In this document: one piece after another, positions 25,001-37,000 of the stretch | Layout: each line of letters begins with the position of its first letter | Position numbering within the stretch: position 1 is the first letter of the stretch | Assembly: GCF_017348835.2 (NCBI RefSeq) | Contig: NZ_CP072312.1 | DNA from: Escherichia coli | GTDB lineage: Bacteria > Pseudomonadota > Gammaproteobacteria > Enterobacterales > Enterobacteriaceae | Length of the DNA stretch: 64,000 nucleotides | Reading direction: 5' to 3' (one strand) | Program-made: the position numbers

Positions 25001-28000
25001 ATCCGGTAGTGAGGAGGGAGGCGAAAGGGTTAACGTACCGAGAATTTTATCATTAGCATCTCGGGCTTCCACCTGAACAGGTGTTTTATCATCAGCCTTC
25101 ACCAGACGGACCAACAGCAAACTTTTCCGCAGGCTGGTCAGATGTTGTTGACTTTCCCCTTCTTTAGGATGGGCAGATAAAATCTGGCTCTGTGCAAATT
25201 TCACCTCAGCGGCCAGTCCCCCCTGCAGATCATTTACGGGCTGGGTGGTATTGAAATAAATGGCTGAATTATTATCAGCAGCAGTTGCAGCAAATGCTCC
25301 CATCGCCAGAGAGGCAAGGATCATGCATGACAGATACTTTAATTTCATAAGTGTACTCCATCTTTCATTTTAGATTTCATGCAGCCGGATATAATAGAAG
25401 TGTTAAATTTTATTTTTTCAGGAGTGATTCACTCATTCACCAGTGTTGATTTTTATAACACACTTATATCTACTTCAGAAAGATAACCTGATAAAAAATA
25501 TTAACTCCGATCACATTCTTCTATATATTCCATCACAATATTTTGTTTAAAAAATGTTAAATTCACTATCTTCGTGATAATTAACAAACAGGGTACAAAA
25601 CCAGTAACTACAAAATACAATAAAAAAAATACATATCGCATTTTATCGAACATAGTGAACATTAGCTATTGCTATATTTTATTTTTTTGTATTAATCTCA
25701 TTTAAAAAAAACAACCACAACGCGAAAACAATAAATAAATAACAAATAAAACTCATTTTTATTAAAATAAAAAACAAAAGAATATATCCTTAATCACAAT
25801 ATCCAGATGCTCCTCCCCACGTAATATAGACACAGGCCCAAGCGAGGTTCTGGTTTTCAAATTGTTCCGGACAGAGACCGCCACACCAACTGTGCCGTCG
25901 TCACCGATTGTAATCACATTCGATCTGAACCGCCCCGGAAATCCTGGAGACTAAACTCCCTGAGAAAGAGGTAAACAGGATGACTAAAAATACTCGTTTT
26001 TCCCCCGAAGTCCGTCAGCGGGCGATTCGTATGGTTCTGGAAAGTCAGGATGAATATGACTCACAGTGGGCGGCAATTTGTTCCATTGCCCCAAAGATTG
26101 GCTGTACGCCGGAGACTCTGCGTGTCTGGGTTCGCCAGCATGAGCGGGATACCGGGAGTGGTGATGGTGGACTCACCACCGCTGAACGTCAGCGTCTGAA
26201 AGAGCTGGAACGTGAAAATCGTGAACTGCGCCGCAGTAACGATATCCTTCGCCAGGCTTCCGCTTATTTTGCGAAGGCGGAGTTCGACCGCCTCTGGAAA
26301 AAATAATGCCACTGCTGGATAAGCTGCGTGAGCAGTACGGGGTCGGACCGGTATGCAGCGAACTGCATATTGCCCCGTCAACGTATTACCATTGTCAGCA
26401 ACAGCGACATCATCCGGATAAACGCAGTGCCCGTGCGCAGCACGATGACTGGCTGAAGAAAGAGATACAGCGCGTATACGATGAAAATCACCAGGTATAC
26501 GGTGTGCGTAAAGTCTGGCGTCAGTTGTTACGGGAAGGTATCAGAGTGGCCAGATGCACTGTGGCACGTCTCATGGCAGTTATGGGACTTGCCGGTGTTC
26601 TCCGGGGTAAAAAGGTCCGCACTACCGTCAGCCGGAAAGCCGTTGCCGCATGCGACCGCGTAAACCGTCAGTTCGTGGCAGAACGTCCAGACCAGTTGTG
26701 GGTGGCTGATTTTACCTGGGTAAGCACATGGCGGGGCTTCGTCTATGTGGCGTTCATCATTGATGTGTTTGCCGGATACATCGTGGGGTGGCGGGTCTCA
26801 TCGTCCATGGAAACGACATTCGTGCTGGATGCACTGGAGCAGGCGTTGTGGGCCCGTCGGCCGTCCGGCACAGTCCATCACAGTGATAAAGGTTCTCAGT
26901 ATGTATCACTGGCCTATACGGAGCGACTAAAAGAAGCAAAACTGCTGGCATCAACAGGGAGTACAGGTGACTCGTATGACAACGCGATGGCGGAGAGCAT
27001 CAATGGTCTTTACAAAGCGGAGGTAATACACCGTAAGAGCTGGAAAAACCGTGCAGAAGTGGAACTGGCCACACTCACGTGGGTGGACTGGTATAACAAT
27101 CGACGATTGCTGGGAAGGCTGGGTCATATCCCTCCGGCAGAAGCAGAAAAAGCTTATTATGCTTCCATCGGAAATAATGATCTGGCAGCCTGAGTTCACA
27201 GATAAAATACTCTCCAGGAAACCCGGGGCGGTTCACCCCTAATTCAACTAATTGGAGGCATTACCATGCATTAGTGCAAGCGCCTTGTGGATTCTTTTGC
27301 TAATGACGGAAACATATTGTACAATATTGCATTTATCCCTCAATAAATAAATGAGTTATCAGATTGCAAAAATCTGTTATCAAACTAATTCAAATAAAAA
27401 GAGATTGATACGACCAACGTACACAAAAATTTTCGATATTCGAACTAAATAACAGCTCCTAATACCGCTACACTTTAGCTATCCAGTCTGCGCCTCAGAA
27501 ATGGACGATGCCGTTGAAGGACTGGTGTATGGCAATGAGCCGCTTTATTATCGAATTCGGTGACCGCCTGGACGGTCACTTCGGAGAAAAGGCATTTACA
27601 CAGCATCCTAAACAGGTTCAGCATAGGTGATATACCGCCTTTTCATTTTCTTCTCCATTATTTATAAGGGAGGTGTATTATTATGCAATATTATTGGTTT
27701 TACCCATTGTTTTTTTCAGTTCATGAATGTTTGCAAAAAAATAAATGAACAACAATTTTATGTATTTAAAATAAATTAATTTTACTTCTGTAATGGTGTC
27801 ATGATTAGCAGCTTTTTAAACTAATATCGACTTTCAATAAATAAGGACAGGTAATGGACAACAAAAATATCTGAACCCGGGTGAGATTCATAAGTTGCAC
27901 AGTGCTGTCTTTAAAGTGCCACACCCGGAACGTAATCACTGCCTGCTCCTTATGGGGTATCTTCATGGTGTCCAAGCATCAGAGTTATTAGGTATAAAAC

Positions 28001-34000: not shown

Positions 34001-37000
34001 TTATTTCCGATGGAAGCATAATAAGCTTTTTCTGCTTCTGCCGGAGGAATATGGCCCAGCCTTTCCAGCAATCGTCGATTGTTATACCAGTCCACCCACG
34101 TGAGTGTGGCCAGTTCCACTTCTGCACGGTTTTTCCAGCTCTTACGGTGTATTACCTCCGCTTTGTAAAGACCATTGATGCTCTCCGCCATCGCGTTGTC
34201 ATACGAGTAACCTGTACTCCCTGTTGATGCCAGCAGTTTTGCTTCTTTTAGTCGCTCCGTATAGGCCAGTGATACATACTGAGAACCTTTATCACTGTGA
34301 TGGACTGTGCCGGACGGCCGACGGGCCCACAACGCCTGCTCCAGTGCATCCTGAACCGCCCCGGAAATCCTGGAGACTAAACTCCCTGAGAAAGAGGTAA
34401 ACAGGATGACTAAAAATACTCGTTTTTCCCCCGAAGTCCGTCAGCGGGCGATTCGTATGGTTCTGGAAAGTCAGGATGAATATGACTCACAGTGGGCGGC
34501 AATTTGTTCCATTGCCCCAAAGATTGGCTGTACGCCGGAGACTCTGCGTGTCTGGGTTCGCCAGCATGAGCGGGATACCGGGAGTGGTGATGGTGGACTC
34601 ACCACCGCTGAACGTCAGCGTCTGAAAGAGCTGGAACGTGAAAATCGTGAACTGCGCCGCAGTAACGATATCCTTCGCCAGGCTTCCGCTTATTTTGCGA
34701 AGGCGGAGTTCGACCGCCTCTGGAAAAAATAATGCCACTGCTGGATAAGCTGCGTGAGCAGTACGGGGTCGGACCGGTATGCAGCGAACTGCATATTGCC
34801 CCGTCAACGTATTACCATTGTCAGCAACAGCGACATCATCCGGATAAACGCAGTGCCCGTGCGCAGCACGATGACTGGCTGAAGAAAGAGATACAGCGCG
34901 TATACGATGAAAATCACCAGGTATACGGTGTGCGTAAAGTCTGGCGTCAGTTGTTACGGGAAGGTATCAGAGTGGCCAGATGCACTGTGGCACGTCTCAT
35001 GGCAGTTATGGGACTTGCCGGTGTTCTCCGGGGTAAAAAGGTCCGCACTACCGTCAGCCGGAAAGCCGTTGCCGCATGCGACCGCGTAAACCGTCAGTTC
35101 GTGGCAGAACGTCCAGACCAGTTGTGGGTGGCTGATTTTACCTGGGTAAGCACATGGCAGGGCTTCGTCTATGTGGCGTTCATCATTGATGTGTTCGCCG
35201 GATACATCGTGGGATGGCAGGTCTCATCATCCATGGAAACAACATTCGTGCTGGATGCACTGGAGCAGGCGTTGTGGGCCCGTCGGCCGTCCGGCACAAT
35301 CCATCACAGTGATAAAGGTTCTCAGTATGTATCGCTGGCCTACACGCAGCGGCTTAAGGAAGCCGGATTACTGGCATCAACAGGGAGTACTGGCGACTCG
35401 TATGACAACGCGATGGCGGAGAGCATCAATGGTCTTTACAAAGCGGAGGTAATACACCGTAAGAGCTGGAAAAACCGGACAGAAGTGGAACTGGCCACAC
35501 TAACGTGGGTGGACTGGTATAACAATCGACGATTGCTGGAAAGGCTGGGCCATATTCCTCCGGCAGAAGCAGAAAAAGCTTATTATGCTTCCATCGGAAA
35601 TAATGATCTGGCAGCCTGAGTTCACAGATAAAACACTCTCCAGGAAACCCGGGGCGGTTCATCCAGCACGAATGTCGTTTCCATGGACGATGAGACCCGC
35701 CACCCCACGATGTATCCGGCAAACACATCAATGATGAACGCCACATAGACGAAGCCCCGCCATGTGCTTACCCAGGTAAAATCAGCCACCCACAACTGGT
35801 CTGGACGTTCTGCCACGAACTGACGGTTTACGCGGTCGCATGCGGCAACGGCTTTCCGGCTGACGGTAGTGCGGACCTTTTTACCCCGGAGAACACCGGC
35901 AAGTCCCATAACTGCCATGAGGCGCGCCACTGTACATCTGGCCACTCTGATACCTTCCCGTAACAACTGACGCCAGACTTTACGCACACCGTATACCTGG
36001 TGATTTTCATCGTATACGCGCTGTATCTCTTTCTTCAGCCAGTCATCGTGCTGCGCACGGGCACTGCGTTTATCCGGATGATGTCGCTGTTGCTGACAAT
36101 GGTAATACGTTGACGGGGCAATATGCAGTTCGCTGCATACCGGTCCGCCCCCGTACTGCTCACGCAGCTTATCCAGCAGTGGCATTATTTTTTCCAGAGG
36201 CGGTCGAACTCCGCCTTCGCAAAATAAGCGGAAGCCTGGCGAAGGATATCGTTACTGCGGCGCAGTTCACGATTTTCACGTTCCAGCTCTTTCAGACGCT
36301 GACGTTCAGCGGTGGTGAGTCCACCATCACCACTCCCGGTATCCCGCTCATGCTGGCGAACCCAGACACGCAGAGTCTCCGGCGTACAGCCAATCTTTGG
36401 GGCAATGGAACAAATTGCCGCCCACTGTGAGTCATATTCATCCTGACTTTCCAGAACCATACGAATCGCCCGCTGACGGACTTCGGGGGAAAAACGAGTA
36501 TTTTTAGTCATCCTGTTTACCTCTTTCTCAGGGAGTTTAGTCTCCAGGATTTCCGGGGCGGTTCACAATGCTGAAAAACAAACATGCATAATAAGTCACA
36601 ATTATGAATTGTGATTTCTTCTATAAAAAAGAGACCACTGCAATATGTGATCTATTGTATTATTTCATAATTGTTAAAGCCACTTCACAGTATGCTCACA
36701 TTGTACGGATATATTCGTAATGTTTTTTATATCGAATGAACGACAGAAGTTGTGGAGATTTTATGAAAGTAATTAGCATGAAATTTATTTTTATTTTAAC
36801 GATTATTGCTCTTGCTGCTGTTTTTTTCTGGTCTGAAGATAAAGGTCCGGCATGCTATCAGGTCAGCGATGAACAGGCCAGAACGTTTGTAAAAAATGAT
36901 TACCTGCAAAGAATGAAACGCTGGGACAACGATGTTCAACTTCTTGGTACAGAAATCCCGAAAATTACATGGGAAAAGATTGAGAGAAGTTTAACAGATG

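Follow-up and report, generated by a model that had tools for sequence, protein, structure and literature searches.

The window analysed here (64,000 nt of Escherichia coli contig NZ_CP072312.1) is, judged by its sequence, a pO103/pO157-type EHEC virulence plasmid and displayed block-by-block identities of 99.7-100% to plasmid pF2_18C_FIB. Its virulence modules (katP, etp-stcE-repFII, ecf/lpxM and cmi-ehx) were set apart by six copies of the IS3-family element IS629, each exactly 1310 bp long with the ends TGAACCGCCCCGG...CCGGGGCGGTTCA. These copies are designated c1 to c6 and listed in Table 1; c1, c2, c5 and c6 constitute class A, c3 and c4 class B. All six copies announced by an earlier sequence-only reading were located, and the span to which that reading had assigned two coexisting sequence types (25926-36565) extended exactly from the first base of c3 to the first base of c4.

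Table 1. IS629 copies and associated features in the window (IS, position within the element).
Feature	Position in window	Strand	Remarks
IS629 c1, class A	35-1344	-	changes at IS 141, 148, 165, 1204, 1208, 1250 and 1251, private or recycled
IS629 c2, class A	4176-5485	-	one endpoint of the 20.4-kb inversion
20.4-kb segment between c2 and c3	5486-25925		IS91, IncFII repA, etp type II secretion genes, stcE
IS629 c3, class B chimera	25926-27235	+	right end faces ecf operon
Class-B diagnostic block in c3, IS 808-1043	26733-26968	+	20/22 fixed differences
IS629 c4, 3' part, IS 905-1310 (= 34348-33943)	33943-34351	-	plus duplicated TCC at 34349-34351
IS629 c5, class A	34352-35661	+	inserted in c4 after IS position 904
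IS629 c4, 5' part, IS 1-904	35662-36565	-	includes 632-644 patch (window 35922-35934)
Class-B block in c4	IS 808-904 = 35758-35662; IS 905-1043 = 34348-34210	-	
IS629 c6, class A	45025-46334	+	between ehxC side and traJ leader/FinP

Every copy displayed the length of ~1.3 kb, the imperfect terminal inverted repeats and the 5'-TG...CA-3' ends of IS629 (isoform IS1203) within family IS3. Two overlapping reading frames were recognized, a putative helix-turn-helix OrfA and a putative DDE/rve OrfB, with a predicted programmed -1 frameshift. OrfA matched HTH_Tnp_1 (E = 2.9e-12), OrfB matched HTH_21 and rve (E = 1e-25 to 1e-26), and the Rfam ALIL frameshift pseudoknot was found in 6/6 copies (116-120 bits). 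Both frames were intact in all six copies and, with the pseudoknot, make class A and class B both look functional. Identities to IS629 copies of O145, O157 and O26 ranged from 94.7 to 99.2%; the authors of pF2_18C_FIB call the orthologous copies IS1203, a variant of IS629 (PMC6985150).

The target duplication of 3-4 bp found in family IS3 was displayed by c5 alone (TCC / TCC). The other five copies lacked one of their own, as with c1 (GGC / CCC), c2 (ACC / GTT) and c3 (ATC / CCC), which is consistent with later recombination. Simple IS629 insertions in relatives were flanked by duplications ACG, TTG, CATG, GCC, CCC, TAT and GTC. The right end of c1 abutted a truncated traH and its left end the cytochrome b562/katP module, katP being bracketed by c1 and c2 in direct orientation. 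In pO103 and pO45-1, a single IS629 was bordered by the two sequences that in the window lie to the left of c6 and to the right of c1.

Alignment of the six copies and comparison with chromosomal IS629 upheld the two classes that the sequence-only reading had described. Copies c2, c5 and c6 were pairwise 2-6 nt apart, c1 differed from these three by 9-11 nt and c3 from c4 by 9 nt, while class A and class B were separated by 27-35 nt. On translation, every peptide motif attributed to the classes was present: WRGF, TVHHSD and ERLKEAKLL in c3 and c4, and WQGF, TIHHSD and QRLKEAGLL in c1, c2, c5 and c6. Motifs HTPP and NDDLAA were, as claimed, confined to c1 within the window; NDDLAA is not private to it, being the allele of O157, O145 and pO103 copies. 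The 22 fixed differences between classes were all located within IS 808-1283, 20 of them within 808-1043, and five of these 20 replaced an amino acid. No fixed difference occurred in IS 1-807 (analytic P = 7e-10); the maximum chi-square breakpoint was found at 807, with a value reached in 0/5000 permutations.

The two classes were unequally distributed. Class A is the form present in multiple copies in chromosomes and plasmids of relatives, and it was encountered at >=99% identity in 148 records including both kinds of replicon. For class B, the same identity threshold was reached in only 15 of 20,395 records, nearly all of them plasmids of the pO103 family. The chromosome of pig strain F2_81 (given as host of the nearest relative) harbored a copy 100% identical to c6, as did that of pig strain PE164, and the best match of c3 in F2_81 was 97.9%.

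Segment-wise comparison disclosed the composition of class B. Relative to c6, c3 displayed 0 differences in 1-807, 21 in 808-1043 and 6 in 1044-1310; relative to O157/O145 copies it displayed 25/39, 4/3 and 3/5 differences in the same segments. Positions 808-1205 of c3 carried O157/O145-type alleles, and its last 503 nt (3') were shared, without a difference, by an IS629 from the chromosome of O145:NM strain FWSEC0002; the 5' part of that IS629 differed at 17 sites. Identity of c3 with c6 over the first 807 bp, together with its closeness to O157/O145 copies over 808-1043, therefore makes class B a chimera: a class-A 5' portion of 807 bp is joined to a 3' tract with O157/O145-type (IS1203-like) IS629 alleles. 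Being chimeric, class B is not a whole element acquired separately. The earlier proposal of at least two independent acquisitions or lineages was thus right in that sequence of a second lineage is present; its other half did not hold, c3 being no separately acquired whole element. Among the 27 sampled IS629 copies, the four-gamete test gave an Rmin of at least 14. Homologous recombination between IS629 lineages residing together would have created the chimera, prior to diversification of the plasmid family.

An origin of class B by point mutation in situ was rejected because the differences are clustered and the alleles of the block are shared with O157 and O145 copies. The sharing with the compared O157 and O145 copies was complete except for 808G, which recurs in other IS629 copies.

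Throughout the pO103 plasmid family, including pO103, pO45-1 and pF2_18C_FIB, the c3 site was occupied by a class-B copy. The situation at the c4 site was different. Its flanks, TTTTCAGCATTG and GAGCGATTCTGG, were identical in the window, pF2_18C_FIB, pO103 and pO45-1, but the 808-1043 block was present only in the window and its nearest relative pF2_18C_FIB, and it was missing from the c4-site copy in the four relatives checked directly (pO103, pO45-1, pZ1323HEC0422-4 and pUTAK-6-pO45). Alleles 1067G, 1151C and 1283T were common to all c4-site copies. This distribution argues for gene conversion of a copy that stayed in place: as the class of the c4-site copy varies among plasmids with the same flanks, it reflects a conversion tract and not an acquisition. 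The size of the tract at c4 amounts to between 236 and about 270 bp. Copies c3 and c4 flank ecf as inverted repeats separated by 6.7 kb, and a short non-reciprocal tract may have copied the block between them in either direction; its minimum length would be 236 bp, or 412 bp if the 632-644 patch travelled along. Alternatively, the block could have been lost at the c4 site from ST17 plasmids rather than gained by the lineage of the window.

These results make it improbable that each class represents a whole IS629 element which entered the plasmid or host independently and was kept as a separate lineage. Such an origin would suit the number of differences between the classes and the membership of class-B alleles in another known IS629 lineage, and it is the one proposed for the coexisting sub-types of O157:H7 (PMC3271280). 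It is contradicted by the segment-wise distances with their empty first 807 nt, by other genomes in which the 3' module of c3 is joined to other 5' parts, and by the c4-site copy, which switches class between sister plasmids despite identical flanks.

Composite transposons offer a still weaker account, in which c3-ecf-c4 (and c1-katP-c2) moved as units and the class-B copies are alike for that reason; we consider it very unlikely. The class-B copies do bracket ecf1-4/lpxM with their right ends inward, and the class-A copies bracket katP in direct orientation. However, a single duplication around the whole unit was found neither for c3-ecf-c4 (outer flanks ATC and the reverse complement of TTG) nor for c1-katP-c2 (outer flanks ACC and CCC), the c4-site copy is not of class B in four sister plasmids, and pO157 harbors the ecf operon without flanking IS629. 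Equally little credit is given to sequencing, assembly or polishing errors, the objection foreseen by the sequence-only reading: short-read polishing is difficult in IS copies and the small patches separating the window from pF2_18C_FIB all reuse alleles of other copies, as mis-mapped reads would, but the reading frames are intact, pO103, pO45-1 and pF2_18C_FIB all have the block in their c3-site copy, and 18 independent complete-genome records contained the 251-nt diagnostic block of c3 at 100% identity (98.4-98.8% in O157 and O145:H28 copies).

Besides this chimeric origin of class B and the conversion between c3 and c4, the window displayed two larger rearrangements. Plasmid pF2_18C_FIB (CP043544) originates from the atypical EPEC ST302 pig strain F2_18C; IS1203/IS629 is its commonest IS, and IS elements flank its rearranged and inverted regions (Front Microbiol 2020; PMC6985150). 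Its backbone and its five IS629 sites are those of the window. The window differs by the additional, nested c5, by an extra 36-bp repeat unit before lpxM, by 2 nt fewer at one IS junction and by the 20.4-kb etp-stcE-rep segment, which lies the opposite way round. This segment was aligned as a single piece on the opposite strand at 99.96% identity, and pO103 and pO45-1 displayed the orientation of pF2_18C_FIB. The endpoints of the inversion fall in the inverted copies c2 and c3; it would have arisen from crossing over between them. When chimeras of the pF2_18C_FIB copies were fitted to locate the crossover inside c2/c3, no position reduced the differences (minimum 15), and the inversion therefore left no readable chimeric trace. 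The 2-nt (AG) difference between the two plasmids was located at the stcE-side junction and is unexpected from a clean homologous exchange. That the copies provide substrates for homologous recombination, as had been suggested from their number, was borne out by actual rearrangements including the c2-c3 inversion.

Copy c5 is a fresh insertion into c4. The duplicated TCC stands on either side of it (34349-34351 and 35662-35664), and the two parts of c4 total 1313 bp (1310 + 3). The position of c5 inside c4 did not figure in the earlier claim. A class-A element, probably located on the host chromosome, would have given rise to c5 through ordinary copy-out/paste-in transposition; the best match in the search for its exact donor was 99.9% (pig strain PE164), with none at 100%. 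The contiguous c4/c5 junction was not found in 72,556 plasmid records (PLSDB) or 20,395 complete E. coli records, and the few junction matches of at least 80% coverage consisted of two separate pieces 300-660 nt apart, which is not the junction. Likewise, the arrangement of the window as a whole was not found in PLSDB or complete E. coli genomes. Overall, a chimeric class B, conversion between c3 and c4, inversion between c2 and c3 and nested transposition of c5 form an explanation that we regard as likely.

IS629 copies had diverged from pF2_18C_FIB far more than the surrounding DNA: the five orthologous copies accumulated 25 differences in 6,550 nt, against 11 substitutions in 56,137 nt of backbone. 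This 19.5-fold excess (Poisson P = 1e-23) would be inflated if the small patches that distinguish both plasmids (141-210, 632-644, 1127-1251 and 1189-1205) were short-read polishing artefacts in a repeat, which they could be, and pF2_18C_FIB is a Unicycler hybrid assembly (PMC6985150). Alleles known in other IS629 copies accounted for 22 of the 25 differences. It is tentatively proposed, at slightly under an even chance, that exchange of short patches between IS629 copies of this plasmid family, in pieces of tens to a few hundred bp, outpaces substitution in the backbone ~20-fold.

Mosaic insertion sequences resulting from recombination or gene conversion are familiar in enteric bacteria, for example from surveys of IS1, IS3 and IS30 in the ECOR collection. 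The copies studied here, situated on a virulence plasmid, resemble them in patchwork allele sharing and variable breakpoints and are no different in kind. A literature search on gene conversion or mosaicism of IS629 returned nothing specific; the recombinant class B is ordinary, already-described behaviour of IS629. Coexistence of IS629 sub-types in one EHEC genome has been known since 2011, when sub-types I, II and III were described together from genomes of E. coli O157:H7 and O55:H7 (Rump et al. 2011, BMC Microbiol 11:133; PMC3271280). They correspond to IS1203 of O111:H- (I), the Shigella/O55:H7 form (II) and the O26:H11 form (III), lie ~55-60 nt apart and occur in one genome and its virulence plasmid (PMC3271280). 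The same element is concerned here; c6 and a chromosomal copy of O157 were 55 sites apart (95.8% identity), and class A was 99.2% identical to an O26 chromosomal copy, both comparisons being with copies taken from genomes. Target duplications are scarce in both cases, 3-4 bp long at only 21/47 sites in that study (PMC3271280) and displayed by 1/6 copies in the window. That study treats the sub-types as independently acquired lineages, whereas in the window two lineages are combined within the second class, whose distribution among orthologous sites points to conversion.

IS629 sub-types serve as evidence of independent acquisition in the O55:H7 to O157:H7 story. As this locus shows, copies at one fixed site can change sub-type by conversion, so IS629 trees should be built by segment. 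If the proposed rate of patch exchange is true, whole-element sub-types would be transient mosaics rather than lineages, and the case that trees of them make for independent acquisitions during EHEC evolution would be weakened. In that event, the window paired with pF2_18C_FIB would offer a natural before/after series for the tract length and rate of ectopic conversion, for inversion and for self-insertion. One inversion and one self-insertion present in the window are missing from its nearest sequenced relative, and isomers and nested copies are to be expected in IS-printing or short-read typing of these plasmids. In EHEC plasmids, shuffling of the katP, etp-stcE, ecf and ehx modules takes place at IS629 copies, which act as joints.

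The window corresponded to a large EHEC-type virulence plasmid with a cytochrome b562/katP module, an IncFII replicon, etp type II secretion genes and stcE, as well as the ecf1-4/lpxM(msbB2) operon, cmi and ehxCABD. In the collections, the nearest relative was pF2_18C_FIB (CP043544) from the atypical EPEC ST302 pig strain F2_18C (99.7-100% identity, block by block), with the ST17-lineage pO103/pO45 (FIB13) plasmids coming next. Four departures from collinearity with pF2_18C_FIB were found: a nested IS629 copy (c5), a 20.4-kb inversion, an additional 36-bp repeat unit and a 2-nt junction difference.

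Six IS629 copies (c1 to c6), each of exactly 1310 bp, were located by repeat search and inspection of each end. All six kept OrfA (HTH_Tnp_1), OrfB (HTH_21 and rve) and the ALIL frameshift pseudoknot. Pairwise differences amounted to 2-6 nt among c2, c5 and c6, 9-11 nt between these and c1, 9 nt between c3 and c4, and 27-35 nt between class A (c1, c2, c5, c6) and class B (c3, c4). These values bear out the coexistence of two sequence classes proposed in a sequence-only reading, whose quoted peptide motifs were all found at the copies named (WRGF, TVHHSD and ERLKEAKLL in c3 and c4; HTPP and NDDLAA in c1). Eighteen independent complete-genome records contain the class-B block (IS positions 808-1043) at 100% identity, which rules out an error as its source. 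A seventh, diverged IS3-family remnant (~87% identity to IS629 positions 1-250) adjoined an IS110 fragment beyond eptO and also occurred in pF2_18C_FIB and pO103.

IS629 copies and associated features in the window
Feature	Position	Strand
IS629 c1	35-1344	-
IS629 c2	4176-5485	-
IS629 c3	25926-27235	+
IS629 c4 (two pieces)	35662-36565 and 33943-34351	-
IS629 c5	34352-35661	+
IS629 c6	45025-46334	+
c5 target duplication (TCC)	34349-34351 and 35662-35664	
Four-SNP patch in c4	35922-35934	
katP/cytochrome b562 with c1 and c2	35-5485	
Inverted segment	5486-25925	
CopA-like antisense RNA	9417-9506	
IS3-family remnant	10728-10979	
stcE-side junction with c3 left end	25917-25934	
36-bp tandem repeat	32442-32521	
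traJ 5' UTR/FinP pair	46464-46575	

All 22 fixed differences between the classes were located at IS positions 808-1283, 20 of them within 808-1043 and none in the first 807 nt (analytic P = 7e-10); the maximum chi-square breakpoint fell at 807, a value reached by none of 5000 permutations. Over segments 1-807, 808-1043 and 1044-1310, c3 displayed 0, 21 and 6 differences from c6, 25, 4 and 3 from an O157 chromosomal copy, and 39, 3 and 5 from an O145:H28 copy. Judged from these segments, class B is a chimera that joins the 5' part of class A to a 3' tract bearing O157/O145-type (IS1203-like) alleles. Amino-acid changes resulted from only five of the 20 block differences, which fits descent from two functional parent elements. 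A chromosomal IS629 of O145:NM FWSEC0002 matched c3 exactly over the 3' 503 nt and differed from it at 17 sites in the 5' part. The same 3' module occurred with varying breakpoints in other IS629 copies, and four-gamete counts put the number of recombination events at 14 or more for the 27 copies sampled and at five or more for the 11 copies in the window and pF2_18C_FIB together. The earlier interpretation of at least two acquisitions or lineages was partly supported: alleles of a second IS629 lineage are present, but the classes, lacking any fixed 5' difference, are not clean lineages.

The copy beside ecf1 (c3 site) was of class B in pO103, pO45-1, pF2_18C_FIB and the window. At the c4 site, flanks were identical across the same four plasmids, and among the plasmids compared only the window and pF2_18C_FIB carried the 808-1043 block, the copy being class-A-like in pO103, pO45-1, pZ1323HEC0422-4 and pUTAK-6-pO45; 1067G, 1151C and 1283T were common to all these c4-site copies. 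Seven more pO103-family plasmids displayed 98.7-98.8% identity across the c4 locus, the level expected for the class-A state. A single non-reciprocal tract, in either direction between c3 and c4, could account for this class difference; it would measure at least 236 bp and at most ~270 bp, or ~412 bp or more if a patch at 632-644 was co-transferred. The obvious donor or recipient would be c3, lying 6.7 kb from c4 in inverted orientation. The patch (T, A, G and C within 13 bp) matches O145-type IS629; it was displayed by the c3-site copy in pO103 and pO45-1, by c4 and not c3 in the window, and by neither the c3-site nor the c4-site copy of pF2_18C_FIB.

At 99% identity or more, class-B copies turned up in 15 of 20,395 records, nearly all pO103-family plasmids, and class-A copies in 148 records, chromosomes as well as plasmids. 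The comparison with chromosomal IS629 that had been proposed was made by proxy. The chromosome of F2_81, host of the nearest relative, has IS629 at 26 places, one identical to c6, and matched c3 at best at 97.9%. Class A is therefore the form that occurs many times over, on chromosomes and on plasmids; class B essentially keeps to the regions flanking ecf in the pO103 plasmid family.

Copy c5, whose nesting goes unmentioned in the sequence-only reading, was inserted in c4 after IS position 904 with a clean 3-bp duplication. The c4 site was an uninterrupted IS629 in every relative carrying it, and a contiguous c4/c5 junction was found in neither collection searched (plasmids; E. coli records). 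An independent nesting, at IS position ~1032 with duplication CCC, was present in pOkiPb01711_1 (NZ_AP042674.1, 2501-5123), which shows that self-insertion recurs. This bovine E. coli plasmid carries its nested pair next to espP.

The six copies had also been proposed as recombination substrates, and actual recombination was seen. The 20.4-kb segment between c2 and c3, two copies in opposite orientation, was inverted relative to pF2_18C_FIB; since pO103 and pO45-1 share the orientation of the latter, that of the window is derived. The inverted segment contains a CopA-like antisense RNA of the IncFII replicon, so that one plasmid replicon is flipped relative to the rest. No crossover signature could be read from the inversion. 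At the stcE-side junction with the left end of c3, the window had the same flank and IS end as pF2_18C_FIB with two nt (AG) fewer, a difference that would not result from clean homologous crossing-over within the IS. Only c5 displayed its own target duplication; none was found at the flanks of c1, c2, c3, c4 and c6. In pO103 and pO45-1, one IS629 is flanked on its two sides by the sequences that adjoin c6 on the left and c1 on the right.

Relative to pF2_18C_FIB, unique backbone showed 11 substitutions in 56,137 nt and five orthologous IS copies 25 differences in 6,550 nt, 22 of which were alleles present in other IS629 copies. This 19.5-fold higher rate (Poisson P = 1e-23) is best taken as an upper bound, because short-read polishing inside repeats can create such recycled-allele patches and pF2_18C_FIB is a Unicycler hybrid assembly (PMC6985150).

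Near the lpxM/msbB2 gene, a perfect 36-bp tandem repeat (2.2 copies, one unit more than in pF2_18C_FIB) lay at the 5' end of the longest reading frame; the annotated lpxM start varies between relatives (936 nt vs 999 nt). Rfam hits placed the traJ 5' UTR and its antisense partner FinP ~130 bp beyond the right end of c6. Since the traJ gene adjoining this IS629 carries a truncated annotation in pF2_18C_FIB, the insertion has probably disabled the transfer region. Copies c1 and c2, directly oriented and without flanking duplication, enclose the katP and cytochrome b562 genes, and recombination between these two copies would remove katP; pO157 EDL933 has the same katP module adjoining a truncated IS629.

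Mosaic IS copies arising by recombination are textbook knowledge. Three IS629 sub-types, ~55-60 nt apart, coexist in EHEC genomes and their plasmids, where less than half of the sites show a duplication of 3-4 bp (Rump et al. 2011, PMC3271280), and IS1203/IS629 was the commonest IS in the pF2_18C_FIB study, which pointed out IS-flanked rearrangements (PMC6985150). Added here are two recent events, the nested insertion and the inversion, and a corrected reading of the second class, which is a chimera, probably spread by conversion, and not a second acquisition.
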